A stretch of 64,000 bases of DNA from an uncultured Candidatus Rokubacteria bacterium (GCA_963754315.1 CAVWFS010000019.1:861745-925744), one strand, 5' to 3'. Counted from the first letter of the stretch, positions 519 to 56,800 are shown. The notes: generated by a model from the letters alone, not told the origin. Made by a program: numbers and translations.

Positions 519-2024
519 TCAAGGCGAGAAAGTCAGCTCAGCGACGCTCAGGGCAACGATGTCGCCGAGATCGACGGCATTGTCGTTCAGGCTCCCCGGG
601 CGGATCAGCGCCGAGAACACGCGGTAGACACCGCTGGCGATGACCCCAGCCGGGGGGAAAATGTACTGAAAAAAGCTCGAGGCATCGAGCTGGAAGCCAG
701 GGGGGACGACCTGCATCGGCGACAGAGAGGTTGGCGCCGACAGCGATCCCGTCCGCTCGAGGACGCCGTGGCCAGAGAACAGGACCAGCGTCTTTCGGTC
801 AGGGAGCAGGGCACCGACGTAGAGGTCCAGGGCCGAGCTGGCGTCCGGATTGTGTACCGACAATCCGAGGCTTAGCGTCTGCCCTGAGCCGAACCGAGTT
901 CCATTGAGCCAGACTCGCGTGTTGGCAAGTAGGGCGGCGCTCGGTCGCAACACATAGGCGTCCTCGTCGACGTCCGTCACCGTCACCAACAGACCAAAAC
1001 CGGGCACATGGCCCAATCGACCGAACATACCATTCGGCGACGCGGCCCCGGGGCCGCCGGAAACCGTTGCCGACGACCACGAACGAGTCTCTGTGTCGAG
1101 GAAGTAAACGATGTCCCCGCCGCTCCAGACTATCATCCGATCGGTATCCGGGTCGTAGGCGAGGCCTGGCGACGTGTTGTTCGCGAGCAGAGGCGTGCCC
1201 GGCCACTTCTCGCGAATGAACGAGCTCCCTGGCCCGATGTCGTAGACTGACACGCCTCCGTTGTTGTCGTCTGGTCCTCCGATGATGACGAGCTTGCTCC
1301 TCACCGGATCCACGGCACTCGTCATGTGGTAGTCAATGAAATTGTCACTGGCCAGCCGATCGTAACTGTTGGTTTCGAAGGTGTACGCGTAGAGATCCCG
1401 AGAGTCATGCAGATATACTTTCTTCGAGTTCGGGTCGTATGCGGCCACCACTCCGGCGTCGGGACCTGGTTGTGGACCCGACGGATCCATCCGCTGCCAG
1501 ATAAGGGACGGGAAGTGGAACGTCCACGTGACACGACTGAAGTGCCCCGGGCCACAGGCGAGGCTTCCACCGTACACGAAGAGCCGGTCGGCATGGGCAA
1601 TGTAGGCCATGCCACCGTAGCTGTGCCGGGAATTGGGCCGCCCGTCCGCCAGCGTCTCCTGGCAGTCGCGAGTACCAATCGGTAAATTAGGCGGGCTCGG
1701 GTCGGTCAAGCGCTGGATCGTCCGCGTGGCCAGATCCAGTGCGTACAGCTCGTTTCCTGCGTAGTCGTTATGGCCGCCGCCCCACATGATAAGGCGGTCT
1801 CGAGTCGAGTCCACCACCCCACCGTTCCAAGCTAGGATCACGTTCTTGCAGCGCCCAGCAAAGTCGTAGTCCGGTGTGGACGGCGGGCACACCGCTCGCA
1901 TCTTCGTGTTGGGAATGGCTGTCCAGCCGGAAGGAAAATCCTGCGCGTTGGCCCGCGATGCTTGCGGGGGAAGCAACCAGGGCACCAGGAGCATCACGGT
2001 GGCCATCAGCAGATACCGAATCAA
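519..2024 (-). CDS. Secreted protein: module A (Kelch-like beta-propeller) + C-terminal module C
   Basis: Probable TTG start at 2024 with GGAGGG RBS. Signal peptide ending ANA-QD; WNGG..WGGGHNDYAGNE and DGRPNSRHSYGG motifs. The last ~130 aa are homologous to the end of 3173-4786. Confidence 0.8.
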   Translation of the reverse strand: MIRYLLMATVMLLVPWLLPPQASRANAQDFPSGWTAIPNTKMRAVCPPSTPDYDFAGRCKNVILAWNGGVVDSTRDRLIMWGGGHNDYAGNELYALDLATRTIQRLTDPSPPNLPIGTRDCQETLADGRPNSRHSYGGMAYIAHADRLFVYGGSLACGPGHFSRVTWTFHFPSLIWQRMDPSGPQPGPDAGVVAAYDPNSKKVYLHDSRDLYAYTFETNSYDRLASDNFIDYHMTSAVDPVRSKLVIIGGPDDNNGGVSVYDIGPGSSFIREKWPGTPLLANNTSPGLAYDPDTDRMIVWSGGDIVYFLDTETRSWSSATVSGGPGAASPNGMFGRLGHVPGFGLLVTVTDVDEDAYVLRPSAALLANTRVWLNGTRFGSGQTLSLGLSVHNPDASSALDLYVGALLPDRKTLVLFSGHGVLERTGSLSAPTSLSPMQVVPPGFQLDASSFFQYIFPPAGVIASGVYRVFSALIRPGSLNDNAVDLGDIVALSVAELTFSP

Positions 2025-2059
2025 GTGAGCGTCCCTCCACTTGTGTCGTGGACACCAGG

Positions 2060-2940
2060 GATCGTGTCCCCAGCAGTGGTGCACGAGCGGTGATTCGCGG
2101 AGGGCAGGTGCCCCTTCAGTTCAGCACGGCCGACAGCCACACGGACTGATTGTCGCTGAGCGCGTGCAGCCCTTCAAGCTGCATATATTGCCGCTGCAGC
2201 TGCCACTCGTCGTTCGGCTCGAGCAGCGGCCCCCACCAGCCGGATGATCGCCGCCTCGTTGGGGAAAATTCCCACCACGTCCGTCCGCTAGCTTGCAGCG
2301 CTCCAGCGGATTGGTGCGATCGAGCCATGCCTGGGACCAGCGTCAGCCCCCCTTAGGGGGAACTTCTCCCGCAGCTGGCCGCTCACCGCGCCATTGAGCG
2401 ATGGCCGCTCCCTGGCTCTCCTGGGCGAACACCGTGTTGATCAAGGCCAGGACCATCTACCGCTGCCCCTTGCCCGCGTGGGCCAGGGCCTTGCGGATGA
2501 AGTGCACCCGACACCGCTGCCAGCTCGCCTTGAGCACCTTGGCCACGGCTGCCCTCAACCCCTCGTGGGCATGGGAAATCACCAGCTTGACGCCACGCAA
2601 CCCCCGCCGGGTCAGGCTGCGCAGGACGCTGGTCCAAAACGGCTCCGCTTCGCTCGGCCCCACCACCAGCCCCAGCACCTCTCGCACCCCGTCGGTGTTC
2701 ACCGCCACCGACACGATGCGCCCCGCCTCCCGCACCTTCACGTAGGTCGCATCGATCCACAGGTACGGCCAATCCCGTCCAGGGGTCGGTTCACGAATGT
2801 CCCGACCCGCTCGTCAATCTGACTGCACAGCCGCGAGACTTGACTCTTCGAGATGCCGCTCATCCCCAGCGCGCGGACCACCTCATCCACCGAGCGCGCG
2901 TCGACACCCCCTGGATGTACGCCTCTTGGATCACCAGGCA
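2060..2940 (-). mobile_element. IS256 (Mutator) family transposase remnant, frameshifted and 5'-truncated
   Basis: Fragments VIQEAYIQG, ALGMSGISKSQVSRLC, REVLGL..GPSEAEPFW, WQRCRVHF and NDEWQLQRQYMQLE. End-like motif CACCACTGCTGGGGACACGAT at ~2061-2081. Confidence 0.85.
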
Positions 2941-3172
2941 ACTGGTGTCTACCTCGCCCGGGCGGCGGTTGGCTGGACCGACTCAAGCAAGGCGGGCACA
3001 TCACGCTTGTGTATCATGCTCGTCGGCTATCGAGCGGTGCCAACTCTACGGCGAAACGTGAGCCAGTGGCTGGACCAGGCGCCCCGGCTCGTCGCCGTGC
3101 ATAGGGCAGTCGATGTTGCCAGTGATCCGCTCACCCCTGACCCTTGACGGCTGACCGCACAGGGTCGATCCT

Positions 3173-4786
3173 GATGGTCAGTGGGCATGGGGCGCCATTT
3201 CGAAAGAAGCACGCGGTGATTCGAGGCCGTCAGGCTGCGCTCGAGCTTCTCCTGTTCACCCTCGCCATATCTCTGCTGGTAGGAACCGCTCAGGGGCACA
3301 CGACTCCGATCGACATTCCGAGTGGGGTCTTCATTGCGCTGGAGCGGCCGGACTGGGGCCGGGGGCCGGCGCGGGAGACGAAGCACTCGACGTACGCGCA
3401 CAACCCGATCGACGGGCGGCTGTACCAGATGGGGGGGACTTTGGGGGGACGGTGGGGGGGTCGTCGTACCGGCAGGACATGTACTCGGTGTCGATTGCGG
3501 AGCGGTGGGCGAGCCGGAACGACCGGAACGCGGGCTGGCGGCAGGAGTACCCGTACTGTGGGCCGGAGGGAGGGCGGCAGCCGAAGTCGCCGGACTATGT
3601 CGGGTGGACGTGGGACACCAAGCGGCGGGTGTTCTGGAGCGTGCCGGGCACGTTTGTAATCCCGGCGGCGGTGTGTCCAGGCATCACGGCGAGCTGGGGG
3701 GACGACCCCCCGAAGTATTTGTTCAACCACCTGATGACCTTTGATCCCTTCGAGCCGGACCTGACCCAGCGCTGGCAGGACCGGGGGCGCGACATTGGGC
3801 CGACGGCCGTGGACACGTGGATGAGCGTGTACGACGCGGGGACCGACAGTCTGATTCGCTTCGGGTGGGACGGGGCGCGCGGGGCGATGGTGAACATCTA
3901 TGACATTACGGCCGGGCAGTGGACGGCGAAGTTGCTGGGGTTGAACGCGGTGGGGCAGGACATCCGGATCTTTAAGGAGATGCTGGCGGCGGACTGGGGG
4001 CAGCGGGTGATTTATGTGATCGACGGGATTGCGGGGCGGCTGCATCGCTACCGGGTAGATGGGCGGACGATCGAGGACCTGGGGGTGGTGCCGGGGGGCC
4101 CGATCGCCTATGCGGCCAACAATGATGCCTACGCGGTGTGGGACAGCCTGCACCGGGTGCTGTTCTTTTTCCGGATGGACACGAGCATCCTGCACGTCTA
4201 TCACCCGGACACGCAGGAGTGGGAGACGCCACCGCTGGTGACAGATCCGCCGGGGCTGACGCCGCACGTGCGGCACGCGGCGGTGTTCGACCCGTACCAG
4301 AACGTGCTGGTCCTCCTGGGGACGACGGACACGGCGAACCCCTACATGTACCTGTACCGCTATGCGGAAGAAGGTAGGCCGAGCACCCGGCTCTCCCTCA
4401 GTGGAATCCAGTTCCATGCGGGCCAGACGTTGAATCTCGGACTGTCCGTCCACAATCCCAACGAGAACTCACCTCTCGAGCTTTACGTCGGCGCCGTGCT
4501 TCCGGACGGGAAGACCCTGGTTCTGTTCTCTGGCCCCGGCGTCCTCGAGCGGACGGGATCGCTGTCCGCACTCGCCTCCCTGTCGCCGATGCAGGTCGTT
4601 CCCCCTGGCTTTCAGCTCGATGCACCGAGCTTTTTCCAGTACACGTTCCCCCCCGCCGGGGTCACTGCGAGCGGTGTCTACCGTGTGTTCTCGGCGTTGA
4701 TCCGCCCGGCAAGCCTGGACGACAATGCCGTCGATCCCGACGATATCGTCGCCCTGAGCGTGGTCGAACTGAGTTTCGCGCCGTGA
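3173..4786 (+). CDS. Secreted protein: module B (beta-propeller-like) + module C; one frameshift in a G tract at 3431-3437
   Basis: ORF 3144-3659 (signal peptide, PIDIPSGVFIALERPDW) and ORF 3452-4786 join if G7 is G8, as in the paralog at 31217. Exact start uncertain. Confidence 0.75.
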   Translation, partial: DGQWAWGAISKEARGDSRPSGCARASPVHPRHISAGRNRSGAHDSDRHSEWGLHCAGAAGLGPGAGAGDEALDVRAQPDRRAAVPDGGDFGGTVGGSSYRQDMYSVSIAERWASRNDRNAGWRQEYPYCGPEGGRQPKSPDYVGWTWDTKRRVFWSVPGTFVIPAAVCPGITASWGDDPPKYLFNHLMTFDPFEPDLTQRWQDRGRDIGPTAVDTWMSVYDAGTDSLIRFGWDGARGAMVNIYDITAGQWTAKLLGLNAVGQDIRIFKEMLAADWGQRVIYVIDGIAGRLHRYRVDGRTIEDLGVVPGGPIAYAANNDAYAVWDSLHRVLFFFRMDTSILHVYHPDTQEWETPPLVTDPPGLTPHVRHAAVFDPYQNVLVLLGTTDTANPYMYLYRYAEEGRPSTRLSLSGIQFHAGQTLNLGLSVHNPNENSPLELYVGAVLPDGKTLVLFSGPGVLERTGSLSALASLSPMQVVPPGFQLDAPSFFQYTFPPAGVTASGVYRVFSALIRPASLDDNAVDPDDIVALSVVELSFAP

Positions 4787-6063
4787 GCATGCGCTGCACA
4801 ATCACCTCAATGAGGTCTACTGCCATCGGGATACGGCCAGCCGTCCTCGTCATCCTCGCGATCGTCTTGCAACCCCTCTCGGTCAGCGCCAAGGAGATCG
4901 GACCCGAAGCGGACTGGTGCCGCGAGGCGAATACCCTGCCAGCCGGCGCTGAGCTCCTGCTACGTCCAGGCGACTACCACGGCCCTTGCACGATTCGGCG
5001 CGGGGAGGGAGGCGCGGGAGGGCCGATCTCCATTCGCGCCAAGGATCCCGACCGGCCCGCCCGCATCGTGTACTCCGGCGGCAGCCACAACGTGCTGAAT
5101 ATCCGTCGCGACGACGTGACCATCCGCGGTCTCGAATTCGGGCCGACACTACAGGATGTCGACGGCATCCGGATCTACGACGGCAACAGGATTACCATCG
5201 AGGACTGCCACTTCTCGCAGATGGGTGGTATTGCCGTTGTGGCGAATTATGCCAACGTTCGCGACCTCACCATTCGGCGAAACGCCATCCGGCATTCGAA
5301 GTCGACGGCGATGTACTTCGGGTGCCATGACGGGATCTCGTGCACCGCCTCCGATCTCGCTATCGAGCACAACTTTATCGACGGCGTTGATACCGAGCAT
5401 GGGATCGGCTACGGCATCCAGATCAAACTCAACTCAACGGCAACCATCCGCGACAACGTGATCGTCAACACCAAGGGACCCGGCATCATGGTCTACGGAG
5501 CGGCCGACCCCTCCCGCGTCAGCCTGGTAGAGAGGAACCTTGTGGCGGGCTCGCGCACCTCGTCGGGTATCGTGGTCGGCGGCGGTCCGGCGGTGGTTCG
5601 CAATAACGTCGCTCTCGCCAACGCCGAAGTCGGGGTCGGGCTTGAGGACTATCGCCGACGGGGACTCCTTCAGGGGATTCTAGTTGCTCACAACACGCTG
5701 TACGGGAACAGCAAGGGCGCGATCGGCGTGCCCGCCTCCGGTCGCCTCGAAGCCAAAGTGATCAACAACGCGGCGCACGCCAAGGTCGGGACTCGGTCGT
5801 TGCCGGCCGACCGATCGGGTTTGCTCGCCAGGGGCAATGTCGACTGTTCCCTTGCCCCATGCTTCGGCAATCCGGAGGGGATGGACTTCTCGCCTCATGC
5901 CACCTCACCGCTCTTGGGTCGGGGGCGCCCCGAGGCTGACCAGAGGATGCCCGTAGACGACTACTTGGGGCGGCGGCGCGGAGGGTTGCCCACGCCCGGC
6001 GCATTCGACGGCGCGGCGGAGCCCCTTGTCATCGGCATCCAGCCGGGCGAGCGCCCTCGATGA
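4783..6063 (+). CDS. Secreted right-handed parallel beta-helix protein (pectin-lyase-like fold; module D)
   Basis: Signal peptide; PbH1-type repeats (VTIRGLEF, ITIEDCHF, LTIRRNAI, TIRDNVI). Homologous to the C-terminus of 32501-37075. Confidence 0.8.
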   Translation: MSMRCTITSMRSTAIGIRPAVLVILAIVLQPLSVSAKEIGPEADWCREANTLPAGAELLLRPGDYHGPCTIRRGEGGAGGPISIRAKDPDRPARIVYSGGSHNVLNIRRDDVTIRGLEFGPTLQDVDGIRIYDGNRITIEDCHFSQMGGIAVVANYANVRDLTIRRNAIRHSKSTAMYFGCHDGISCTASDLAIEHNFIDGVDTEHGIGYGIQIKLNSTATIRDNVIVNTKGPGIMVYGAADPSRVSLVERNLVAGSRTSSGIVVGGGPAVVRNNVALANAEVGVGLEDYRRRGLLQGILVAHNTLYGNSKGAIGVPASGRLEAKVINNAAHAKVGTRSLPADRSGLLARGNVDCSLAPCFGNPEGMDFSPHATSPLLGRGRPEADQRMPVDDYLGRRRGGLPTPGAFDGAAEPLVIGIQPGERPR

Positions 6064-6272: not shown

Positions 6273-6287
6273 TGGCACCTGTCTTGC
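6273..6287 (+). promoter_or_regulatory. Sigma-54 (-24/-12) promoter of the main EPS operon
   Basis: TGGCAC-CTGTC-TTGC, an exact match to the TGGCAC-N5-TTGC consensus just upstream of the priming glycosyltransferase. Confidence 0.75.
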
Positions 6288-6302
6288 GACTAACCCACTC
6301 TC

Positions 6303-7676
6303 GTGCTCAGAGTATTCGGACACTACTTACCGGCGATCGCAGTCGTCTCAATCCTGGGGGACCTGGTCACCCTGACCGCATCTGTCCTCCTTGCTTCACA
6401 ATCCGCGGGATGGATCGGCACGGGGCCGCTCTGGCCTAAGGCCCTTGCCGTGTGCGGTATCACGGTCTTCAGCATCTATGTCACTGATCTCTATCGAACC
6501 GATTCACGTCTGAACAGGCGCGAGCTGGTCGCGCGGCTGGTGGTCGCTCTGCTCGCAAGCGCGCTGGTTATGGCCGCGCTTGGTTTTGCTGTCCCCGCCC
6601 TGCGTTTCAGCCGCTCTGCCTTTGTCCAGATCTTCAGCGCCTTCGCGATCGGCCTTGTTCCCTGGCGAATTGTCTTGCACCGGATCTGTCTGAATGGTCG
6701 CCTGCACGCGCGCGTCCTCGTGCTCGGGCTCAGCCGCGCGGCCGGGCGACTCGTCGAGCTGCGGACGACCGGCTCGCAACCCTTCGTGATCCTCGGCTTC
6801 CTGGATGACGCTCCCGATGCCCATGACAAGCTGCCCGCGGGGACGGAGCTCCTCGGTAAGCCGCGGGATCTCCTGAATCTCGTCGACGAGCTACGGCCAG
6901 ACCTCATCGTCGTCGCTCTCTCCGACATGCGGGGAGCATTGCCGACGAGTGATCTACTCGAATGCCGCCTGCGTGGAATTCGGGTTGAGGAGTGGCCGAC
7001 ATTTTTTGAGAAGCAGACGGGGAGGGTGCTGGTCACCGATCTCCGACCGAGCTGGCTCATATTCTCCGATGGCTTCGTTTCGATCCAGATCACGCAGACG
7101 TTGAAGAAGGTTCTGGATCTTACCCTCGCCCTCTCCCTTCTCGTCCTCACACTGCCCCTCATGCTGCTGGTGGCAGTCTCCATCAGGCTCGATTCCAAGG
7201 GGCCGATCCTATTCCGCCAGCCCCGGGTCGGTCACAACAGCCGCATCTTCATGATCAACAAGTTCCGTTCGATGCGAGACAACGCCGAACGTGAATCGGG
7301 GGCCGTGTGGGCTACCGCCGGCGATCCTCGGGTGACCCGAGTCGGTCGCATCATCCGGCGGACGCGGCTCGATGAGCTGCCGCAGCTCTTCAACGTGCTC
7401 CTGGGAGAAATGAGCTTCGTGGGACCCCGCCCAGAGCGGCCCGAATTCGTGCGCACGCTTCACCGACAGATCCCTTTCTACTCAGGCCGGCTTGCCGTCA
7501 AGCCAGGCATCACCGGATGGGCCCAGGTCCGTCATCACTATGCGGCCTCGGTCGAGGATGCGATGGAAAAGCTTCAGTACGACCTCTACTACATCAAGAA
7601 CCTGTCCCCCTTCTTGGACATTCTCATCCTCCTCAGCACGATTCAGGTCGTGCTCTTCGCGCGAGGAGCACGCTAA
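6303..7676 (+). CDS. Priming polyprenyl-phosphate glycosylphosphotransferase (exosortase/PEP-CTERM system sugar transferase type)
   Basis: N-terminal TM helices. Bac_transf motifs [60 protein letters not shown]. Confidence 0.95.
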
Positions 7677-7680
7677 GCCG

Positions 7681-47036: not shown

Positions 47037-47060
47037 GGCTTCTCGAGTCTGGCCAGGCAT

Positions 47061-47846
47061 TTACCGGCGCTCATAGACGCCGAGCAGACACTTCTCGGGA
47101 TAGGTCAGCCCGATCCAATTCAGGGTGCGACGGCCGAGGAGTTCAATCCTCAGCGTCGTTGCGAACCGACCGAAGGCGCGGCAGTCCTCGAGCGCGCTGA
47201 AGTATCGTTCCCGGAATCCAGCCTGTTCAAAAAGGCCGGCCAGTCGCCTCCGCGTGTTCATTTTATAGGCCACCGGAAAAGTGTCACGTTCGTGTGTTTC
47301 CCATAACCAGCGCTTGGCGAGGTGATGGAGGGCGAAGGGCATGAGCTTGGTGATGACAGGCACCGGCGACCATCGGTTCACGGTATAGATGACGATCTGC
47401 GCTCCGGGGCGGGTCATCCGGGCGATGGTCGACACGCTCTGCTCTGGACAAGCTATGTGTTCGGCAACCATCCGGAGGGTGACGATGTCAAAGGTCCGAT
47501 CCAGCGGCACGTCCTCGATCGAACACTGGAATCGCTCGTGAAGAAATGGATTCTCTTTGATGGTTTCGGCCGGATCCACTCCGACGAGGAGTCCACAGCG
47601 AGCTACCAGCGTCTCCGTCAAACGCGGATTCGCGATGAAGACATTCCGGCCACAACCGACGTCAAGCCACCTACAGCCCGGAGTAACGAGCTTCGCCACC
47701 ACGGTCTCGTAGTATTCATCGGGGGTGAAGTAATCGAAGCGGCGCCGGAGCCGCGGTGACCATCCTGGGGGCGCGAGATCTCCGTAACGCATACGGAAGG
47801 TCTCCAGGAGTTCAGCCTGACTGGGATGGAGATCGCCATGGTTCAC
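47061..47846 (-). CDS. Class I SAM-dependent methyltransferase
   Basis: WLDVGCGRN, FDIVTLRMVAEHI, DTFPVAYKMNT. Start uncertain. Confidence 0.8.
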   Translation of the reverse strand: MNHGDLHPSQAELLETFRMRYGDLAPPGWSPRLRRRFDYFTPDEYYETVVAKLVTPGCRWLDVGCGRNVFIANPRLTETLVARCGLLVGVDPAETIKENPFLHERFQCSIEDVPLDRTFDIVTLRMVAEHIACPEQSVSTIARMTRPGAQIVIYTVNRWSPVPVITKLMPFALHHLAKRWLWETHERDTFPVAYKMNTRRRLAGLFEQAGFRERYFSALEDCRAFGRFATTLRIELLGRRTLNWIGLTYPEKCLLGVYERR

Positions 47847-47899
47847 GACACGTACTCCGCTGCCCAATCTCAATGGCACCGAGCGGAAGACATCATCGT

Positions 47900-48874: not shown

Positions 48875-48878
48875 GCTC

Positions 48879-50195
48879 TCACCAACTGAGCCCTACGTAC
48901 TGTGCCCGAAGATTCGCGCGCTCTCTGATGTTTACGAGGTCAAGCACGATCTGGTCCGGGCGAGCGTGTCTAGCCAGGCCCGTGATGGTCTCGGGGTCAT
49001 TGAGCCCGACCACGAGGATGTCGGAATCGACGATCACCTTCTCGATGTCGCGGCGTAGGAGGCAGCCGATGTGCGGTACGTGCTGTTCGATAAACCTCCG
49101 GTTAGCCCCGAGCAGGCTCGACAGGTGCACGTCGGGGTCGTACACGAGCAGCCCCAGCCCCTTACCAATGAAGTGTTCGGCGAGCAAAACCAATGGGCTC
49201 TCACGCAGGTCGTCGGTCCCGGCCTTGAACGATAGCCCAATCATCCCAACCCGTCGCCTTCCTGACGACATCACCTTCGCGATAGCATGGTCGAGGTGGA
49301 GGCGATTCGATGGCAATATAGCCGCCAGCATCGGGAGTTCCACGTCGCGCATCTTGGCCAGATATGTGGTGGCCCGGAGATCCTTCGGTAGGCAAGACCC
49401 ACCGAACGCGAACCCCGGCTTCAAGTACGCCGGCGATATGTTGAGCTGTGTGTCACGGCAGACCAAGTCCATGACTTCGAAGGCGTCGACGCCTAGTGCC
49501 TCGCACAACCGTGCCGTCTCATTGGCGAACGTGATCTTAAGTGCGTGAAAATTGTTACAGCAATACTTGACCATCTCCGCGGCCCGAATCGACGTCGCGT
49601 AGAACTGGCCGGGCAAATGACCGAAGAGGGCCCGTAGTGTCTCCGTGGCCACTGCTGAGCGGGCCCCGACAATGGTAAACGGGGGCCGGTCATAGTCTCG
49701 GATCGAGGTCCCCTCCCGCAGAAACTCTGGCTGGAAGCACACGTGGAATCCCTCTCCCTCCTTCTTACCCGACTCCTTCTCGAGAATTGGCAGCAGGATT
49801 TCTTCCACCGTGCCAGGGACGAGCGTCGAACGGAACACGACGACGTGGGGAAACGCCGTTGCTTGCATGGCCAGACCGATGTCGTGCGCGACGCGTAGCA
49901 GCGCCGACTGGTCCTGGCTGCCATTGGCGGCGGCAGGCGTCCCCACACAGACCAACGACATCTGACTGGCCTTAAGCGCGACCTCGGCGTGCTGGGTAAC
50001 GGCCACACGACCGCTGGCCACGGCTTGAGCCATGAGGTCGACCATTCCCTCTTCGACCACCGGCGTGCGACCGTCCGCGATGAGGTCAAGCTTGGCCTGA
50101 TCGACATCGACGCCAATTACCTCGTGCCCGTCACGACTCAAGCATGCGAGTGACACCGCCCCGACATAACCGAGACCGAACACACTGATCTTCAC
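48879..50195 (-). CDS. Nucleotide-sugar dehydrogenase (GDP-mannose/UDP-glucose 6-dehydrogenase, AlgD-like)
   Basis: ISVFGLGYVG, CVGTP, RST, PEFLREG, GFAFGGSCLPKD, GLSFKAGTDDLRESP. Confidence 0.93.
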   Translation of the reverse strand: MKISVFGLGYVGAVSLACLSRDGHEVIGVDVDQAKLDLIADGRTPVVEEGMVDLMAQAVASGRVAVTQHAEVALKASQMSLVCVGTPAAANGSQDQSALLRVAHDIGLAMQATAFPHVVVFRSTLVPGTVEEILLPILEKESGKKEGEGFHVCFQPEFLREGTSIRDYDRPPFTIVGARSAVATETLRALFGHLPGQFYATSIRAAEMVKYCCNNFHALKITFANETARLCEALGVDAFEVMDLVCRDTQLNISPAYLKPGFAFGGSCLPKDLRATTYLAKMRDVELPMLAAILPSNRLHLDHAIAKVMSSGRRRVGMIGLSFKAGTDDLRESPLVLLAEHFIGKGLGLLVYDPDVHLSSLLGANRRFIEQHVPHIGCLLRRDIEKVIVDSDILVVGLNDPETITGLARHARPDQIVLDLVNIRERANLRAQYVGLSW

Positions 50196-51424
50196 GACGC
50201 GCGTTCTCCTTGCAGTTCCTTCGCCTGACTCCAGCCCTGGTGCCTCGACAAACACCGCTCGATCATTGCATCCAGGCGGCGCATCGAGTGATCCCACGCG
50301 TGATGTGTCAGCATCCGCCGGCGGCCGGCCACTGATAGACGGTGACGCTCAGTGGCATCATCGAGGATGCGCACGATGGCGCGTACATAATCATCGGGCG
50401 TCTGCGCCACCAAAAAGTGATCATTATCGAGTGCATCGACGCCGGCCGCCGCCATCCGGCTCGTGACCACCGGTACTCCCAGCGCCATCGATTCGAGGAT
50501 CTTGTTTTGCGTACCGCGGGCGATGTTGAGCGGCGCCACCATGAGAGCAGAACGGTGAAGATAGGGGCGCACGTCGCTCACGGAGCCGGTCACGGTGACG
50601 CCAGGGATCTCGGCCAGCCGGCGGACCGCGGACGACGGATCGGCCCCGACGATCACCAGCTTGACACGTGGGCGTCGGGCGCGCAGAAGTGGGAGCGTGC
50701 GCGCGCAAAAATCAAGCATACATTCCTGATTTGGGAAGTAGTCCATGCGGCCGACGAACGAGATCATGTCGGTGTCGTACGGCTCTTCGCGAGGCGCAAA
50801 GTAGGTGCCGTCGACACCGTTCGGGAACCAATCCGTCGCCACGCCGACTGAGTACCCCTCCAGGGTCTCCCATTCGGCCCGCGTGGTGGCTGTGCAGAGG
50901 TCAAAGTGCCGAGCCAGGCGCTTCTCCAAACGTTCGAGCTTGCGCCCCTCCAGCCAATAACCGGCTGCCAGTGGGAACGGCTTAAAGCGAGCATAATCGA
51001 GCCACTTCTGCGAGTCCATGTCACCGAAGTCGAGGATCTTTGGCATGCCGCGCAGCCCCGCCACGTACGGCGCCACCGAGGAGCAGTGGACGAAAACCAG
51101 GTCGAACCTCTCCTGCTTACCAAGCACGCGGATCCGGCGGGCGAGATGGCCAGAGTGAAAATAGCCCACCGACGACGGCACCGGCGTTGGCAGGCGCGTC
51201 AGCATCCGGCCCCACTGCACCGCTTCGCGTACCACGGCCATCTCGAAGCGTGCGCAGTGGGGGGCGATACCGCGTCCCTCCTCGGCTTCGGCCGTGGAGC
51301 GGGCCAACGAGCATACGGTGACCTCGTGTTTCTGAGCCAGGTGGCGGATCGTGTTAAACGGTCTGATCTTGCCCCCGCGTTTGGGTGGAAAAGGGAAGCG
51401 GTGGCAGACGTAGAGAATTTTCAC
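50192..51424 (-). CDS. Glycosyltransferase family 4 (PEP-CTERM/XrtA sugar transferase type)
   Basis: HRFPFPPKRGGKIR, DFGDMDSQKW, FVGRMDYFPN, IARGTQNKILE. Confidence 0.92.
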   Translation of the reverse strand: MKILYVCHRFPFPPKRGGKIRPFNTIRHLAQKHEVTVCSLARSTAEAEEGRGIAPHCARFEMAVVREAVQWGRMLTRLPTPVPSSVGYFHSGHLARRIRVLGKQERFDLVFVHCSSVAPYVAGLRGMPKILDFGDMDSQKWLDYARFKPFPLAAGYWLEGRKLERLEKRLARHFDLCTATTRAEWETLEGYSVGVATDWFPNGVDGTYFAPREEPYDTDMISFVGRMDYFPNQECMLDFCARTLPLLRARRPRVKLVIVGADPSSAVRRLAEIPGVTVTGSVSDVRPYLHRSALMVAPLNIARGTQNKILESMALGVPVVTSRMAAAGVDALDNDHFLVAQTPDDYVRAIVRILDDATERHRLSVAGRRRMLTHHAWDHSMRRLDAMIERCLSRHQGWSQAKELQGERAS

Positions 51425-53343
51425 GTGGCCTCCTTGAGCTCCGCAGTGACGTCCTCGACATCCCGGCGGTCGAGGAAGATTCGCGCCCAGATCTCGAGGG
51501 CAAGCATCGCCACCAGACGGTCGGTACCGTCGATCCGCCGCGTTTCATGGGCCGCAATCAGCGTGCGCACTGCGTCGTAGCGGAACAGGCCACGAGCGGC
51601 CACGGCCGATTCCGACAACAGGAGACGTACCACGGGCACCAAGTCGCTCTTAAGCCATGCCCCCATCGGCGTGCCGAAACCGCGCTTCTCACGCTCGAGG
51701 ATGTCGTTCGGCAGGAGGCCTGTCACCGCCTGCTTCATCGCATGCTTGAGACGCCCTCCCCGGATCTTGATTCCTTGCGGCATACGGGCGGCGAGTTCCA
51801 CGAGCTCATGGTCGAGAAGCGGAACCCGGCACTCGAGTGAAGTGGCCATCGACATTTTGTCGGTCAAGTGCAGCAGGTCGTCGGGGAGTTGGGTGGCCGC
51901 GTCGACGGCCAGAATCCGATTGAGGGAATCGCTGCCAGAAGTCTGGTCGAAGGCGTCGGTCACCGCATCCCATCGTCCGCTACCGTTCTCGAGCAAGAGG
52001 GCTTCCATCTCGTTGTCGGAGAAGACCTCAACATACGACCGATAACGATGCTCGAAGGGCAAGCCCGCCGTTGCTGCGAAGCCCTTGGCCAACCGTGCCA
52101 GGTTCAGGAGACGACCGTGGCGATCGCTTGGAAGCCTCTCGCCCACTGCGGCCGCCGCCCGAACCGCCCAGCGCGGTAGGCGATCGAGACGTGCCAGGTA
52201 GTAGTCTCCGAGATAGCGGCGGTAGCCCCCGAACAGCTCATCGCCTCCCACTCCAGACAGGATCACCGTCACGTCTCGACGCGCAAACTCCGAAACGAGA
52301 TAGGTGGTCACAAACGCCGTGTCGGCGATCGGCTCATCCATGTGCCACAGCAGGTGCGGAAGCAACCCGACCACATCAGGCCGAACGATGATCTCGTGGT
52401 GATCCGTCCCGAACAGCCGAGCTACGCGCCGCGCGTACGGCAGCTCGTTGTACAGGCGCTCGGCCCGCCCCCCCGTGAAGCCGATTGCATAGGTCTTGAT
52501 TGGCCGGCTGCTGTGGGCGGCCATGAAAGCGACCACGGTGCTGGAGTCGACTCCCCCGGAAAGGAAGGCGCCAATGGGAACATCACTCACCATCTGCATA
52601 CGCACGGAATGCTCGAGTCGGGAGCGGAGGCGTTCGGTCCACTCGGCTTCGCTCGTGTGATGGTCAATATCGCTAGGAATGCGCCAGTAGCGCCGCTCCT
52701 CAAGGCCGCCGCCTTCGATCGTGAGCAAGGTCGCGGGAGGAAGCTTGCGGATGGCGCGGAACATGGAATGCGGCCCCGGAACGTAGCCCAGGCTTAAATA
52801 CGAGTGAAGCGCAGTATAGTCCAGCGCGGCCGTCACTCCCGGCAACGCTAAGATAGCTTTCGCCTCACTGGCGAAGATGAAATGCTGGCCCTTCTGATGG
52901 AGGTAAATCGGCTTGATGCCGAGCCGGTCGCGTCCGATGAGGAGTCGGCGACGTCTCCCGTCCCATAGTGCAAAGACGAACATGCCGTTCAAGTGACGAA
53001 CAAATTCGTCGCCGTACTCCGCATAAAGGTGGATGAGGACTTCGCAGTCCGAGTTGGTCTGGAAGCGGTGTCCCCTCGGTTCCAGGACGCTTCGAAGCTC
53101 TCGGAAGTTATAGATCTCGCCGTTGCAAACGAGCGTTAGAGTTTTGTCGTGGTTGGACAGCGGTTGGCGGCCACCGGCGACATCGATGATCGATAGCCTG
53201 CGCATGCCAATTGCGCAGGGCCCATCGACGAACTGTCCTTCATCATCAGGGCCCCGGTGCACCATCACCTGACCCATGGTGGACAGCCACTCGTCAGGAG
53301 CAGGCCCGTCGTCAAGCCGGAGAATGCCGTAGATACCGCACAT
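51421..53343 (-). CDS. asnB: Asparagine synthase family amidotransferase
   Basis: MCGIYG, HRGPDD, NGEIYNF, LSGGVDSS, SGVGGDELFGGY, KRGFGTP. Confidence 0.93.
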   Translation of the reverse strand: MCGIYGILRLDDGPAPDEWLSTMGQVMVHRGPDDEGQFVDGPCAIGMRRLSIIDVAGGRQPLSNHDKTLTLVCNGEIYNFRELRSVLEPRGHRFQTNSDCEVLIHLYAEYGDEFVRHLNGMFVFALWDGRRRRLLIGRDRLGIKPIYLHQKGQHFIFASEAKAILALPGVTAALDYTALHSYLSLGYVPGPHSMFRAIRKLPPATLLTIEGGGLEERRYWRIPSDIDHHTSEAEWTERLRSRLEHSVRMQMVSDVPIGAFLSGGVDSSTVVAFMAAHSSRPIKTYAIGFTGGRAERLYNELPYARRVARLFGTDHHEIIVRPDVVGLLPHLLWHMDEPIADTAFVTTYLVSEFARRDVTVILSGVGGDELFGGYRRYLGDYYLARLDRLPRWAVRAAAAVGERLPSDRHGRLLNLARLAKGFAATAGLPFEHRYRSYVEVFSDNEMEALLLENGSGRWDAVTDAFDQTSGSDSLNRILAVDAATQLPDDLLHLTDKMSMATSLECRVPLLDHELVELAARMPQGIKIRGGRLKHAMKQAVTGLLPNDILEREKRGFGTPMGAWLKSDLVPVVRLLLSESAVAARGLFRYDAVRTLIAAHETRRIDGTDRLVAMLALEIWARIFLDRRDVEDVTAELKEAT

Positions 53344-53543: not shown

Positions 53544-53894
53544 AGACAGTGGGGATGGCAGACAGCAGTGTTCCGAGATCCTGGATTCTGCGAGCAGCGG
53601 GACTCTGCAATGTTTGCGTAGCGTCCAACACAGAAAGTGCTTGTGGAAGCGGAGTCTGCCGTCCCCGGACCCCTCCGGCGGGTTGTGCCGGACGTGTACT
53701 TAGCTAAGGGCGTCACTACCTGACGGCCGCCGGACTCGGCGTCGCCGGTGACTCTGTGTCAGACGCCTACCAGCTTGGACCGCAGACGCTACTCATTATT
53801 GGACAGATTGGGCACATCGGGATGGACCGGACTGGGCGACCTCGGTGGAGGTGATGTGGCCATTTTGCCACACCGAACAACTGCCTCGAACGGA

Positions 53895-54170
53895 TCAGTC
53901 AAATTTCCAGTCGGTACCCGCCGACCGGGGTGAGCCGCTCGCCACCACGGTCGCCCCGTTCATAAGCCAGATGTAGACACCCCGGAACTGTGCCGCCACA
54001 GAATGTCCGCCCTGCCGTCCACGTTGAAGCCGGCAACGCCCTGGATGCCCCAGTCCGTTACAAACCGTGCCCCAGCGACCCGCTGGCCGCGATACTCGGG
54101 CCGTTCATCAGCCAGAGGTGGCCAGCGCCAGAGCGGTACCGCCACAGGTCCGGCCGTCCCCGCTGAAGTC
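53895..54170 (-). pseudogene. Decayed FG-GAP/VCBS-like repeat pair downstream of the module A gene
   Basis: Frame-broken DFSGDGR..LWRYRSG..LWLMNG and DWGIQGVAGFNVDGRADILWRHSSG..YIWLMNG. Confidence 0.7.
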
Positions 54171-55317
54171 AAAAAACGCGCAAGGATTCAGGGGCTGGCG
54201 GCGGGTCCGGCGCAAGGGATGGTGGCAGGCCGTTGAGACGAAGCGCGTAGGCATTCACATTTGCGCCAGTTACCGTCACGAACACGCCCGCCTCTGGTAC
54301 ATACCCCCACCGACCGAACGTCCCGTTCTCTGGCGCCGCCCCCGGGCCGCCGCTCAACGTTTGCGTAGTCCACGCCTGCGTGTCCATGTTCAGGCTGTAC
54401 ACCGTGCCTCCACCAACCCATACCACCATTCGATCCGAGCCGGGATCATAGGCGATACCCGGAGACAAGGCGTTGACCACGGCCGCTTCGCCTGTCCATC
54501 TCTGCGCGTTGTACATGCTTCCGGGGCCAATGTCATAGACCATCAGCCCGCCGTGGTTGCTAGCTGTCCCTCCGATGATGACTAGTCTCTTCCGGACGGG
54601 GTCAACCGCCGCCATCATGTGGTAGTCGATGAAGTTGCCACTGGCCAGTCGTTCGTAGCTGTTCGTCTCGAACGTATACGCATAGAGATCGTGCGCGTCG
54701 TGCAGAAATACTTTTCTCGAATTCGGATCGTAGGCGGCGACGATTCCCGCGTCGTAGCGCGGCTGGGGCCCCGAGGGGTTCATCCGTTGCCAAGTCAGGG
54801 ACGTGAAGCTGAACGTCCACGTGTCGCCTCCAAAGTTCCCGGGACCGCACGCTAAGCTACCACCATAGACGAACAGCCGATCCGCGTGCTCGATGTACGC
54901 TACTCCACCGTACGTGTGGCGGGCATTCGGCCGTCCGTCGGCCAACGCCTCAGGGCAGGTCGGCGTACTAATCGGCAAGTTCGGTGGACTGGGGTCCGTC
55001 AGCCGCTGCATTGTTCGCGTTCCAACATCAAGCGCATAGATCTCGTTGCCCGCGTAGTCTCGATGCCCGCCCCCCCAAATGATCAGCCGGCTGCGCCGCG
55101 TGTCCACCGTCCCTCCGTTCCAAGCGAGGATCACGTTCTTGCAAAAGCTCTTGAACTCGTACTCCGGCGAGTTCGGCGGACACACTGTCTGCAGCTTCGT
55201 ATTGGCCAGCTCGGACCAGCCCGACGCAAAGGTTTGGGCTTCCGTCTGTCCGGAGATCAGAAGGACCGCCCCGAGCACTAGCCAGTGAACGAGACAGACT
55301 GATATCATCCTAATCAC
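54169..55317 (-). CDS. Secreted stand-alone module A protein with PPPAPESLRVF tail
   Basis: Signal peptide; WGGGHRDYAGNE, DGRPNARHTYGG, IDYHM, NGTFGRWGY. Confidence 0.85.
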   Translation of the reverse strand: MIRMISVCLVHWLVLGAVLLISGQTEAQTFASGWSELANTKLQTVCPPNSPEYEFKSFCKNVILAWNGGTVDTRRSRLIIWGGGHRDYAGNEIYALDVGTRTMQRLTDPSPPNLPISTPTCPEALADGRPNARHTYGGVAYIEHADRLFVYGGSLACGPGNFGGDTWTFSFTSLTWQRMNPSGPQPRYDAGIVAAYDPNSRKVFLHDAHDLYAYTFETNSYERLASGNFIDYHMMAAVDPVRKRLVIIGGTASNHGGLMVYDIGPGSMYNAQRWTGEAAVVNALSPGIAYDPGSDRMVVWVGGGTVYSLNMDTQAWTTQTLSGGPGAAPENGTFGRWGYVPEAGVFVTVTGANVNAYALRLNGLPPSLAPDPPPAPESLRVF

Positions 55318-55424
55318 TTACCGAGTCACTTCCTGAGGTTCGCCGTCCGGAGACGACGCAGAACGAATGGCAGTAAGACGGATCCCCGCCACGCTAAGCT
55401 CCGGCTGTCGGAATGCGTCAAGTC

Positions 55425-55554
55425 AGTCAATATTCTAGTCGGTACCCGTCGTGAGCCGCTCACCACACCACGATCGCCCCGTTCATAAGTCAGATGTGGA
55501 CACCGCCGGAACTGTGTGCCACAGAATGTCCGCCTGGCCGTCCCCGCTGAAGTC
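55425..55554 (-). pseudogene. Decayed single FG-GAP/VCBS-like repeat downstream of the module B gene
   Basis: DFSGDGQADILW then frame-broken; DNA homologous to 53895-54170 with an internal deletion. Confidence 0.65.
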
Positions 55555-56800
55555 AAAAAACGCGCAAGGATTCAGGGGCTGGCGGCGGGCCCGGCGCATG
55601 CGGCAGGCCCGGCGCATAGCGGTACAGGTACATGTAGGGGTTCGCATCCGTCGTCCCCAGGAGTACCAGCACGTTCTGGTCCGGGTCGAACACCGCCGCG
55701 TGCCGCACGTGCGGCGTCAGCCCAGGCGGATCCGTCACCAGCGGTGGCGTCTCCCACTCCTGCGTGTCCGGGTGATAGACGTGCAGGATGCTCGTGTCCA
55801 TCCGGAAAAAGAACAGCACCCGGTGCAGGCTGTCCCACACCGCGTAGGCATCATTGTTGGCCGTATAGGCGATCGGGCCCCCCGGCACCGCCCCCAGGTC
55901 CTCGATCGTCCGCCCATCTACCCGGTAGCGATGCAGCCGCCCCGCAATCCCGTCGATCACATAGATCACCCGCTGCCCCCAGTCCGCCGCCAGCATCTCC
56001 TTAAAGATCCGGATGTCCTGCCCCACCGCGTTCAACCCCAGCAACTTCGCCGTCCACTGCCCGGCCGTAATGTCATAGATGTTCACCATCGCCCCGCGCG
56101 CCCCGTCCCACCCGAAGCGAATCAGACTGTCGGTCCCCGCGTCGTACACGCTCATCCACGTGTCCACGGCCGTCGGCCCAATGTCGCGCCCCCGGTCCTG
56201 CCAGCGCTGGGTCAGGTCCGGCTCGAAGGGATCAAAGGTCATCAGGTGATTAAATAGGTACTTCGGCGGATCGTCCGCCCAACTGGACGTGATGCCCGGG
56301 CAGACCACCGCTGCCGGGATCACAAACGTGCCCGGCACGCTCCAGAACACCCGCCGCTTGCTGTCCCACGTCCACCCCACATAGTCCGGCGATTTCGGCT
56401 GCCGGCCCCCCTCCGGCCCACAGTACGGGTACTCCTGCCGCCAGCCCGCGTTCCGGTCGTTCCGGCTCGCCCACCGCTCCGCAATCGACACCGAGTACAT
56501 GTCCTGCCGGTACGACGACCCCCCCACCGTCCCCCCAAAGTCGCCCCCCATCTGGTACAGCCGCCCGTCGATCGGGTTGTGCGCGTACGTCGAGTGCTTC
56601 GTCTCCCGCGCCGGCCCCCGGCCCCAGTCCGGCCGCTCCAGCGCTATGAAGACCCCACTTGGAATGTCGATCGGGGTCCCCGCCGCCGCGGCGCTGTTCC
56701 CAGGGGCGTCGCGAGCCACCGTCGTCAACATCAGCACGGCGGCACTCAAGATCAGGGACTGCAGAAGACGGACCGGACCTACCCTGATCACCCCAAACAT
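55553..56800 (-). CDS. Secreted stand-alone module B protein with PPPAPESLRVF tail
   Basis: Hydrophobic leader, then module B nearly identical to 34302-35370. Start uncertain (ORF open to 56947). Confidence 0.8.
   Translation of the reverse strand: MFGVIRVGPVRLLQSLILSAAVLMLTTVARDAPGNSAAAAGTPIDIPSGVFIALERPDWGRGPARETKHSTYAHNPIDGRLYQMGGDFGGTVGGSSYRQDMYSVSIAERWASRNDRNAGWRQEYPYCGPEGGRQPKSPDYVGWTWDSKRRVFWSVPGTFVIPAAVVCPGITSSWADDPPKYLFNHLMTFDPFEPDLTQRWQDRGRDIGPTAVDTWMSVYDAGTDSLIRFGWDGARGAMVNIYDITAGQWTAKLLGLNAVGQDIRIFKEMLAADWGQRVIYVIDGIAGRLHRYRVDGRTIEDLGAVPGGPIAYTANNDAYAVWDSLHRVLFFFRMDTSILHVYHPDTQEWETPPLVTDPPGLTPHVRHAAVFDPDQNVLVLLGTTDANPYMYLYRYAPGLPHAPGPPPAPESLRVF
55617..56682 (-). repeat. ~1.07-kb direct repeat, copy 2 (partner 34302-35370)
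   Basis: Few SNPs and one 3-bp indel (TTDTANP vs TTDANP). Confidence 0.9.

Follow-up and report, generated by a model that had tools for sequence, protein, structure and literature searches.

The rbm genes of Vibrio cholerae are flanked by two vps clusters, and RbmB is a beta-helix. Two secreted propeller proteins, Bap1 and RbmC, are aimed at the organism's own uronate exopolysaccharide (EPS), carry swappable outer domains, and occur alongside a lysine-base lyase. That polysaccharide, VPS, bears a glycine amide-linked to its uronate, according to two reports (PMC10102183; bioRxiv 10.64898/2026.08.03.742583), and RbmB uses calcium together with its lysine base, according to a third (PMC12993940). 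The locus described here, in a 64,000-nucleotide stretch (the window) from an uncultured Candidatus Rokubacteria bacterium, appears by analogy to work in a like manner, without being a member of the same group. It encodes two predicted propeller modules, A and B, in four sets around two EPS operons, along with a beta-helix, D. The original prediction knew of no described system with this architecture; the Vibrio EPS-binding propellers and EPS lyase are a working analogue. The differences are several. Bap1 and RbmC have eight blades and a four-tryptophan site, whereas A and B have six predicted Kelch-type blades and a single invariant tryptophan on the ligand face of A, with none on that of B, which sets them apart from the Bap1/RbmC matrix adhesins. 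A and B are, moreover, a paralogous pair with sets of His, Asp, Lys and Arg residues, fused to each other and to D; they lie within an XrtA/PEP-CTERM locus; and they occur also in CPR bacteria, archaea and phages.

The XrtA/PEP-CTERM system (EpsH/exosortase, PrsK-PrsR-PrsT, sigma-54) is represented by many NCBIfam models that the operons in the window match, but these models include none of A, B, D or a small gene, X. The system's sigma-54 and PrsR logic is described in PMC1569441, the accessible part of which does not contain the word 'propeller', and our literature search found no paper tying Kelch to PEP-CTERM and exosortase.

EPS operon 1 (6303..29447, plus strand; NCBIfam and Pfam) encodes a priming glycosyltransferase (GT), Wzc, deacetylases, FemAB/GNAT proteins, three AsnB-like amidotransferases, GT4s, the ligase, PrsK, exosortase and PrsR, with TIGR03013, TIGR03006, TIGR03019, TIGR03097 and TIGR02602 over cut-off. 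EPS operon 2 (42283..53343, minus strand; TIGR03087 and TIGR03026 over cut-off, and Pfam) encodes an AsnB-like protein, GT4s, a nucleotide-sugar dehydrogenase, transglutaminase-like and methyltransferase proteins, a split CoA-ligase-like gene and a 2OG-Fe oxygenase. Upstream of the window are genes that match TIGR02917 (PrsT) and, just below cut-off, TIGR03027 (an export protein). The locus as a whole thus has the exosortase, system-specific GTs, ligase, deacetylase, FemAB and PrsK/R/T of an XrtA/PEP-CTERM locus: TIGR03013, 03006, 03019, 03097, 03087, 02602 and 02917 match over cut-off, TIGR02915, 02916, 03027 and 03088 just under it, and TIGR03109 and 03108 under it. Judging by these genes, the EPS made here is likely to contain uronate and to be amidated. 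A candidate sigma-54-type promoter matching 10 of 11 consensus positions precedes operon 1 (6273..6288, plus), and weaker sigma-54-like sites lie upstream of two of the A/B sets described below, the giant (37160..37175, minus; 8/11) and the B4-A4 pair (56889..56904, minus; 9/11). None of A, B, D or X carries a PEP-CTERM tag—a C-terminal PEP motif followed by a membrane helix and a basic tail—and a pattern scan of the genome picked out one convincing PEP-CTERM ORF, on contig C7.

All four A/B sets are present where they were first reported. Set 1 comprises A1-C (519..2024, minus; start uncertain, 2006 to 2024), a Kelch-type propeller A with a C-terminal module C (522-929); B1-C (3174..4786, plus), a propeller B with module C; and D1 (about 4810..6063, plus), a right-handed beta-helix. 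A frameshift near 3430, within a run of G and overlooked at first reading, interrupts B1-C and leaves its signal peptide in a different frame; it may be genuine or an assembly error. Between the two propeller genes lies the broken remnant of a Mutator/IS256-family transposase (2160..2912, minus), recognized by PF00872 on 2460-2813 (E 3e-32) and also in a six-frame read. In set 2, the stand-alone propellers A2 (29477..30619, plus) and B2 (31217..32404, plus) flank X (30659..31150, plus; 163 aa, hydrophobic N-terminus). Set 3 is a single giant, A-Ig-Ig-B-FN3-FN3-D (32501..37075, minus; Pfam Big_7 twice, fn3 twice, and Beta_helix), with A at about 36988-36000, the Ig pair at 35959-35380, B at 35362-34300, the FN3 pair at 34276-33660 and D at 33655-32504. 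Set 4 consists of B4 (55553..56821, minus) and then A4 (54169..55308, minus), both ending in PPPAPESLRVF, a tail of the PxxPxxLxV type, which is frequent in relatives of A and B. In both genes the last codons of this ending overlap the start of a frameshifted repeat, which we take to be FG-GAP-like: one remnant at the end of A4 (53880..54172, minus) and a second, more decayed, at the end of B4 (55420..55556, minus).

The sets had been placed before, between and after the EPS operons, all with signal peptides. Their coordinates agree with that placement, except that set 1 is really inside the wider EPS locus, since PrsT and the export protein lie upstream of the window; and each gene does have a hydrophobic N-terminus, as judged by inspection. 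By tblastn, A, B and D (4, 4 and 2 copies) are confined to the window within the 6.5-Mb genome, and module C has two further copies outside it. The latter end two unrelated proteins, which bears out the description of C as an interchangeable tail.

Three of the B copies are 96–99% identical, the assembly shows frameshifts in homopolymers and repeats, and a 592-bp tract inside A2 (29658..30249, plus) recurs exactly, inverted, inside the A domain of the giant (36306..36897, minus). One might suspect from this that the four sets are assembly duplications or chimeras, but that is exceedingly improbable. Divergence between copies is mosaic (DNA identity 67–87% for A, 84–99% for B); their N-termini, ends and neighbours are distinct; related genomes, too, have several A/B sets; and orthologues of A2, B2 and X (P0055, P0001 and P0318) each come from a 10,288-bp ENA contig of an independent assembly. 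The copies contain probable gene-conversion tracts, overlooked at first reading, and in the exact pair A2 is likely to have been the donor and the giant the recipient.

A and B had been thought unrelated. They are, instead, distant paralogues (HHalign 98.5%, E 3e-15, 329 columns), and both are predicted to be six-bladed propellers of the Kelch type, according to DSSP assignments on AF2 models of A4 and B2 (mean pLDDT 92.5 and 90.5). The top fold match of each model is a Kelch domain: for A, that of LZTR1 (Z 26.4, rmsd 2.6, 277 aligned; VIA-align), and for B, one with Z 26.5, rmsd 3.0 and 289 aligned (VIA-align). Pfam finds Kelch matches in A; those in B are mostly below the curated cut-off. 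Six-bladed Kelch domains, whether of LZTR1, KLHDC2/3/10, muskelin and Keap1, of plant specifier proteins or of E. coli YjhT/NanM, resemble A and B in fold (Z 22–26), and there are matches to Pfam PF24681; but the top structural matches, which are eukaryotic binding domains, share only 10–17% identity with A and B, and the invariant residues are distinct. No NCBIfam family matches A or B at E 1e-3, no bacterial protein in the PDB is a sequence relative of A, and PDB and fold searches gave no solved carbohydrate-active Kelch propeller as a close relative of either.

The conserved residues of each protein are predicted to cluster in a polar pocket. In A (76 domains under 60% identity; A4 numbering, counted from 55317) these are W66 (96%), H85 (97%), D87 (89%), N91 (100%), H134 (99%), Y136 (100%) and R336 (93%), and in B (147 domains; B2 numbering), K66 (95%), H67 (93%), D85 (99%) and D137 (98%). 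By DSSP topology, on which the predicted clustering rests, they map to loops of the ligand face or to the point where the innermost strand begins, in blades 1, 2 and 6. K66, H67 and D85, which were absent from the search patterns, are retained in every one of 40 B domains drawn from EPS loci, small cells and phages; H85, Y88, N91 and H134 in phage A were partly selected by the scan patterns. B residues R364 and E266 are variable.

Three known families were considered and set aside. Galactose/glyoxal oxidases (AA5) have a seven-bladed propeller and a C-terminal domain that supplies a copper-binding histidine, whereas both models are six-bladed, and the proteins A2, A4 and B2 stop right after the propeller. 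GH33 sialidases are marked by Asp-box repeats and a RIP motif, neither of which is matched in A4 or B2. The NanM/YjhT mutarotases (TIGR03547) resemble A and B in fold only (Z about 22), with no NCBIfam match at E 1e-3. The comparison with the propeller lyases PL22, PL24 and PL25 points both ways: these have a His/Tyr/Arg catalytic site in a seven-bladed propeller, and A has a His/Tyr/Arg/Asn set but six blades, the two sets being compared by composition.

D is a right-handed beta-helix (PF13229 over cut-off) with invariant Lys180 and Asp92 in alignment (numbering from 4888), and resembles the beta-helix lyases, PL6 and relatives. Its best PDB profile matches are two polysaccharide lyases, one of them PL6 (E 1e-4 and 3e-4), although these span only the N-terminal 40–100 positions. 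From its sequence, D is likely to be a polysaccharide lyase. It forms a tight subfamily of its own, tied to the XrtA/PEP-CTERM system: the ligase is present in 18 of 21 genomes of the close subfamily. X, missed at first, matches no Pfam or NCBIfam family, and recurs near B in other genomes.

The foreseen linkage of A and B to EPS loci is borne out. The XrtA-type ligase (TIGR03097) is present in 15 of the 18 A/B-positive genomes of the phylum versus 31 of 251 overall, counts in which kin are not independent (G037 and G051 have identical scores and are probably one), and all eight A/B genera are among the 17 of 68 that have the ligase (hypergeometric 3e-6). The overlap is incomplete: 16 of the 31 ligase-positive genomes show no A/B (E 1e-10), and in three of the 18 A/B genomes (67–90% complete) no ligase is seen. 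EPS markers accompany 12 of the 19 B loci that come from organisms other than small cells, versus 24 of 525 control tiles, and a Thermodesulfobacteriota genome (L018) has the same layout, with A, B and a beta-helix next to the ligase. Might A and B nevertheless be generic surface modules, unconnected with this EPS in particular, whose presence in EPS loci and giants reflects the clustering of genes for secreted proteins and common possession by a few related lineages? A is widespread, with at least 488 near-length relatives, and often alone; some A-positive stretches (L125, L137–L141) have no EPS marker; and A/B are rare in other phyla (the seed only in 401, the seed and one weak match in 251, the seed and two weak matches in 351). 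This explanation is improbable, nonetheless, given the distribution among genera, the Thermodesulfobacteriota layout, and the fusion of A to B in 41 of 68 long B proteins (42 by score, with one repeat protein dropped). The evidence supports both a functional link between A and B and a link to EPS.

That A and B always occur together is true of this genome but not of others. A is present in 9 of the 10 GTDB genomes that have B, and in 13 of 29 non-redundant B loci of at least 4 kb; among the other 16, some have a third Kelch paralogue or D, instead. Of 67 viral A loci, only three have B. The functional link is backed by recurrent fusion: 38 A-B fusions occur in both orders, with linkers of 1–208 aa, and the identities of their A and B parts rise and fall together (rho 0.44, a value reached by none of 2000 permutations). 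This co-variation, the presence of four paired sets in a single genome, and the many linkers shorter than 20 aa are what one would expect if A and B, perhaps with D and X, formed one obligate physical complex, with the giant as its single-chain form. A fixed assembly of this kind, which the original prediction's 'one machine' implied, is very improbable, since the fusions come in both orders with linkers up to 208 aa that can include Ig spacers, B is often beside another propeller or D rather than A, and phage A is mostly without B. The coupling would reflect a shared substrate, and not necessarily contact.

As to what A and B do, we tentatively favor, at somewhat less than even odds, enzymes that act, with D, on the EPS of the surrounding locus. 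The His/His/Asn/Tyr/Arg set of A would cleave the chain, probably by beta-elimination at uronate, and the Lys/His/Asp/Asp set of B would catalyze the second step, with either the product or a side group as its target. We propose that, because B acts second, it is mostly found in the company of A, a third propeller or D, and A is often alone. Free and tethered versions (with the C tail, with Ig/FN3 spacers, or as the giant) would serve the producer in trimming its own matrix or releasing it, and PrsK/PrsR/sigma-54 may control this. Alternatively, A and B might be non-catalytic, binding two features of the same glycan: the matrix would be cross-linked or anchored as by Bap1/RbmC, D alone would cut, as RbmB does, and the A-B of parasites would be adhesins. 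We find this possible, if somewhat doubtful. All the top structural matches are binding Kelch domains; swappable tails and anchors suit display for adhesion; and the five small-cell genomes tested keep A/B with neither D nor the ligase over cut-off. According to published reports, Bap1 and RbmC bind VPS via a propeller with variable outer domains (PMC10102183), Bap1 has a single central site that binds one VPS unit with the help of metal (bioRxiv 10.64898/2026.08.03.742583), and an adhesin from Saccharibacteria attaches to a wall polysaccharide of the host (bioRxiv 10.64898/2026.10.06.756255). Because Bap1 binds VPS in such a site, a polar pocket could be purely for binding. The Bap1 site is a cradle of four tryptophans, however, quite unlike the Lys/His/Asp/Asp of B, whose ligand-face loops have no invariant aromatic residue, and the residue sets are fixed across phages and loci with differing glycosyltransferases, although one would expect a pocket that sets specificity to differ among these.

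The enzymatic reading extends to organisms that make no such EPS. A, B or A-B are found in large, putatively surface or virion-module proteins of CPR bacteria, small-genome archaea and phages, which the original prediction did not foresee. Giant A-B or B proteins of these carriers terminate in PG_binding_1, dockerin, choice-of-anchor U or a hydrophobic C-terminal helix. A single clade for small-cell B is rejected (p-AU 1e-67) in a tree in which four of the eleven 'small-cell' labels come from neighbours and C-termini. On the favored reading, CPR bacteria, small-genome archaea and phages would have acquired A, B or A-B more than once, and would use them, exposed on surface or virion proteins, to take hold of the EPS coats of producers and open them. 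In its fullest form, the proposal would make A and B the founders of two new carbohydrate-active families with the Kelch fold, one a lyase and the other a trimming enzyme for the second step, specific for amidated-uronate EPS of the XrtA/PEP-CTERM type, and that CPR bacteria, DPANN-type archaea and phages have repeatedly captured the pair as a surface head for EPS-coated hosts. All of this together is unlikely, but were it true, the nearest producer copy of a parasite's A-B head would point to its host. On the favored reading alone, in which the pair cuts the slime, it would show by what means such parasites reach their hosts.

Of the depolymerases predicted in Klebsiella prophages, 18% have a propeller fold, and their activity is unclear (PMC12491483). 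The Saccharibacteria adhesin is similar to A/B, as we read them, in binding host polysaccharide; A-B differs from these phage propellers and CPR adhesins in having a producer-side counterpart inside the EPS locus. Neither A nor B has a match in 50,697 GenBank phage records, and the window's own A and B proteins have none in PHROGs. A occurs, though, in 92 IMG/VR contigs, of which 80 were kept, with A-B fusions in three of the 80. In 12 of the 15 viral loci that were scanned, genes for head, connector, tail or structural proteins are no more than 6 kb away, and the BFVD entry that matches best in fold (TM 0.68) is an uncharacterised phage protein.

The four module sets lie where the original prediction had placed them: divergent A-C and B-C genes followed by D (519-6063), the tandem A2 and B2 (29477-32404), the giant A-Ig-Ig-B-FN3-FN3-D (32501-37075, minus strand) and the tandem B4 and A4 (54169-56800). 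A and B are predicted Kelch-type propeller modules, C is a tail module and D a beta-helix. The window forms the end of contig C19 in a 6.5 Mb genome (66% GC), and a search of the whole genome finds A, B and D in the window only. It contains two XrtA/PEP-CTERM-type EPS operons, identified with Pfam and NCBIfam, and immediately upstream of it lie PrsT and an export protein. Four details had been overlooked: a frameshift in B-C, in a G-run near 3430; a transposase remnant between A-C and B-C; a small gene, X (30659-31150; 163 aa), between A2 and B2; and the overlap of the PPPAPESLRVF ends with frameshifted FG-GAP-like repeats. Frameshifts also abound in similar repeats on contig C12, so the cause may be either decay or polishing error.

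The copies are real. At the DNA level their identity is a patchwork—67–87% among the A copies, 84–99% among the B copies—and orthologues of A2, B2 and X, each listed from a 10,288-bp ENA contig, speak against assembly duplication. Long identical blocks are common to B1, B3 and B4. Two convergent A genes, A2 (29658-30249) and the giant (36306-36897), have in common an inverted tract of 592 bp that is exact, with flanks that are much less identical. That all four sets are an artefact is, on this evidence, barely conceivable. The A2 orthologue from the other assembly, P0055, matches A2 over its full length (83–97% in the mature part); it matches the giant's A well only within the tract, outside of which the giant's A resembles A4. 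Because the orthologue fits A2 throughout and the giant only here, the comparison points to one-way gene conversion, probably with A2 as donor and the giant as recipient. Were the 592-bp repeat to invert, promoters and N-termini would be exchanged; switching of this kind is not favoured, since P0055 fits one-way conversion instead.

A and B had been taken for unrelated modules, and in this the original prediction erred: profile comparison makes them distant paralogues (98.5%, E 3e-15). Both are predicted to be six-bladed propellers, with mean pLDDT of 92.5 for A and 90.5 for B. Their best solved structural matches are Kelch domains of 10–17% identity, with LZTR1 at Z 26.4 for A and 26.5 for B; PL22, PL24 and PL25 entries and Bap1 are absent from the best 50 structural matches listed for the two models. 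Sequence searches of the PDB with A and B return weak matches only, nearly all of them eukaryotic Kelch domains, and A/B clusters in the ESM Atlas are named either 'hypothetical' or Kelch. None of A, B, C and X belongs to an NCBIfam family, C and X have no family in Pfam either, and PHROG has no match for A4 or B2; A and B go unnamed in the curated families. By the membership tests, they belong to none of AA5, GH33, NanM and PEP-CTERM.

What is fixed in these modules is a set of polar residues, a different one in each. W66, H85, D87, N91, H134, Y136 and R336 are present in 89–100% of 76 A domains, and K66, H67, D85 and D137 in 93–99% of 147 B domains. The first three of the B residues persist without exception (40 of 40) in domains from EPS loci (24), small cells (12; CPR bacteria and small-genome archaea) and phages (four); in phage A, some conserved residues were themselves part of the scan patterns. 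Strand topology, rather than coordinates, puts the invariant residues of both modules on the ligand face, in blades 1, 2 and 6, presumably in a single pocket. Sets of His, Tyr, Asn and Arg are typical of beta-elimination lyases, and when A is compared with propeller lyases such a set is present, on six blades. In D, Lys180 and Asp92 are invariant in 14 aligned copies; its best PDB profile matches are lyases, PL6 included, weak and confined to the N-terminus, and a PDB sequence search with D alone finds no match. A direct search with X recovers X itself and one orthologue, and more distant relatives are seen only inside B loci. The core Y.L[IV]RA...G...PDP....A.KR...AW.L.R.P is conserved in this small family, members of which neighbour B in the EPS loci of several genomes.

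A and B had also been said to occur always together. Pairing is indeed frequent beyond this genome; it is not universal. B is rare, with 53 near-length relatives and 247 representatives at E 1e-30, and A is commoner, with at least 488 near-length relatives. Of the 150 best B representatives, 68 are long enough for a second large domain, and 42 of these contain A at 100 bits or more, A first in 38 and B first in four; exclusion of one, a repeat protein, leaves 41 of 68. The other long representatives comprise nine with weak A-like domains and 17 with none. In the 38 strict A-B fusions the linkers span 1–208 aa, and the identities of A and B are correlated (rho 0.44). A is present in nine of 10 GTDB genomes with B, two of them near-identical. 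At the level of loci (69, reduced to 41 non-redundant and to 29 of at least 4 kb, some of which end at a contig edge), A accompanies B in 13 of 29, A or a third Kelch paralogue in 18, either of these or D in 21, and X in six. From the other side, B accompanies only three of 67 viral A loci. By these counts it is B, and not A, that relies on a partner, and an obligate A+B complex, for which the frequent fusions might be claimed, is very improbable. Two more Kelch propeller families, P3 and P3b, adjoin or fuse to B in loci that lack A (L042:14429-15796; L067:5012-6175; L013:10017-12566), one with a weak NanM-type match.

The proposed tie to exosortase-type EPS loci held up. Among 251 genomes of the phylum, 18 have A/B-like matches, 31 the TIGR03097 ligase of the XrtA/PEP-CTERM system and 21 the close D subfamily, and the ligase is found in 15 of the 18 A/B-positive and 18 of the 21 D-positive genomes; kin are not independent in these counts, and G037 and G051 probably represent one unit. 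(These two are filed in different families, with identical A/B and ligase scores and frame lengths, and are probably one contig set binned twice.) All eight A/B genera fall within the 17 ligase genera, of 68; 16 ligase-positive genomes have no A/B at the threshold used. In the regions fetched, A-B and D repeatedly adjoin genes for PrsR, exosortase, AsnB-like and GT4 proteins, and outside the phylum, in a Thermodesulfobacteriota genome (L018), A, B and a more distant beta-helix lie beside the same ligase. An EPS marker is present in 12 of 19 B loci from outside the small cells, versus 24 of 525 control tiles of the window's own genome. That A and B are stock modules, without a special tie to this EPS, is unlikely in view of this association, even with several A-only stretches devoid of any EPS marker. 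PKS/NRPS and carrier-protein genes also adjoin A-B loci (L018:3-7940; L012:7982-10705), and their products might add acyl or aminoacyl groups to the EPS. Next to one B-containing EPS locus (L079:23-4043) are a PorV/PorQ-family protein and a choice-of-anchor N protein. Amidation of the EPS, judged from the AsnB-like genes alone, is putative.

Sigma-54 sites are strong before operon 1 and weaker before B4 (9/11) and the giant (8/11), scores that chance would produce in about 0.012 and 0.09 of 150-bp stretches, respectively; no such site lies upstream of A2, A-C or B-C. The upstream stretches examined do not contain the TTTACA motif of PMC1569441, and a sigma-70 scan of 28000-38000 finds nothing. 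Co-regulation of the sets with the EPS operon through sigma-54 is only suggested, and their membership in the PrsR regulon weakly so.

A and B are repeatedly common to EPS producers and to parasites. Six of 10 GTDB B loci are labelled as CPR bacteria and one as an Aenigmatarchaeota archaeon, and an eighth is from an uncultured archaeon of about 0.8 Mb. In these small cells A-B or B forms the head of large proteins that also carry Ig, FN3, CBM96, LamG or F5/8 domains and close with a peptidoglycan-binding, dockerin or hydrophobic anchor; the neighbouring genes are housekeeping ones. One A-B giant (L056:1677-7121) ends in choice-of-anchor U and a Gly-Gly, hydrophobic, basic tail, which we take to be GlyGly-CTERM-like. 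D and the ligase are over cut-off in none of five small-cell genomes tested. A/B is not common among CPR bacteria: only the seed was found in 401 genomes of a CPR phylum sample, and samples of two other phyla give weak, partial matches only. In the B tree—a quick one of 35 picked rows, with four of the 11 small-cell labels inferred, and unrooted, so that the direction of transfer is unspecified—small-cell sequences occupy several supported places next to EPS-locus sequences; a Yonathbacteria copy is among the closest to the window's B. Monophyly of the small-cell sequences is rejected (p-AU 1e-67). From another quick tree, 23 of 70 rows were removed as near-duplicates. IMG/VR holds A in 92 contigs (80 kept), B alone in one and A-B fusions in three; GenBank phages match neither A nor B, and PLSDB plasmids do not match A. 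Of 15 viral loci scanned, 12 have head, connector, tail or structural-protein genes nearby. Additional Ig, LamG, FN3 or beta-helix domains occur in some carriers, and display on the virion seems probable. B or A can lie between portal and scaffold genes (L142:5377-6993; L161:4052-5368), which suggests head or neck decoration and not a classic tail fibre. That CPR, small-genome archaeal and phage proteins bear these heads is a testable lead on how episymbionts and phages recognize uncultured hosts, and the heads are a possible marker for predicting those hosts.

A, B and D are real, unnamed and EPS-linked; their mechanism is unproven. That A and B are directed at this EPS, in one way or another, is likely. 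Our favoured reading, tentatively held, is that A, B and D are enzymes: the producer context names a likely target, the parasite context implies that the target is exposed and worth reaching, and the constancy of the polar sets speaks for chemistry over variable recognition. A would cut the EPS, B would perform a second step and D would act as a further lyase, the three coupled by their substrate and delivered free or tethered. A close rival, possible if somewhat doubtful, would have A and B purely bind and cross-link the EPS, as PMC10102183 and bioRxiv 10.64898/2026.08.03.742583 show for Vibrio Bap1/RbmC. The claim that no such system had been described needs amending, for the Vibrio set works alike: RbmB, according to PMC12993940, is a lyase alongside Bap1/RbmC, and the likeness is that of a propeller-plus-lyase matrix set. 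The difference lies in the propellers, six-bladed in A and B and eight-bladed in Vibrio, with a different site, and membership fails. In environmental bacteria, the formation of flocs and biofilms is linked to EPS systems of this XrtA/PEP-CTERM kind (PMC1569441 and PMC9850573). In the literature searched we found no propeller-type matrix proteins or enzymes described for them, nor any account of the present combination of modules; supplementary domain tables on CPR bacteria or phages might mention such proteins. If the enzyme reading holds for A or B, carbohydrate-cleaving chemistry extends to a Kelch family that has no close solved relative; if they only bind, theirs is a second version, evolved independently, of the 'propeller plus lyase' matrix design of Vibrio. 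The proteins A, B, D and X, being small and having named pocket residues, lend themselves to direct expression and assay.

The tails and neighbours call for some comment. Because module C also terminates two unrelated proteins of the same genome, it is a general tail, possibly an anchoring or sorting domain that has yet to be named. By eye, these proteins look like a subtilase (C4:14828-17392) and a sugar dehydrogenase propeller (C14:152943-154730); in P0005, a B relative, C is apparently N-terminal. PPPAPESLRVF was rejected as a genome-wide sorting signal: the pattern matched four ORFs and is convincing only on A4 and B4. A PxxPxxLxV-type tail that resembles the first strand of an FN3 domain ends many A/B relatives (P0006-P0172), and is a possible sorting or strand-addition signal. 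Genes for an epimerase (11064-12029), an AsnB-like protein (22723-25005) and a CoA-ligase-like protein (44565-45990) are split or run on by frameshifts, which suggests assembly indels or decay. In the first AsnB-like protein (14197-16104) the MCGI start seen at the N-terminus of its paralogues is missing, and its match to the glutaminase domain is only partial. Despite the full exosortase/Prs system, the sole convincing PEP-CTERM ORF found in the genome is C7:757942-758631, the 5' end of which looks frameshifted. IS110-family transposase genes (57377-62515) flank the B4-A4 pair at the contig end.
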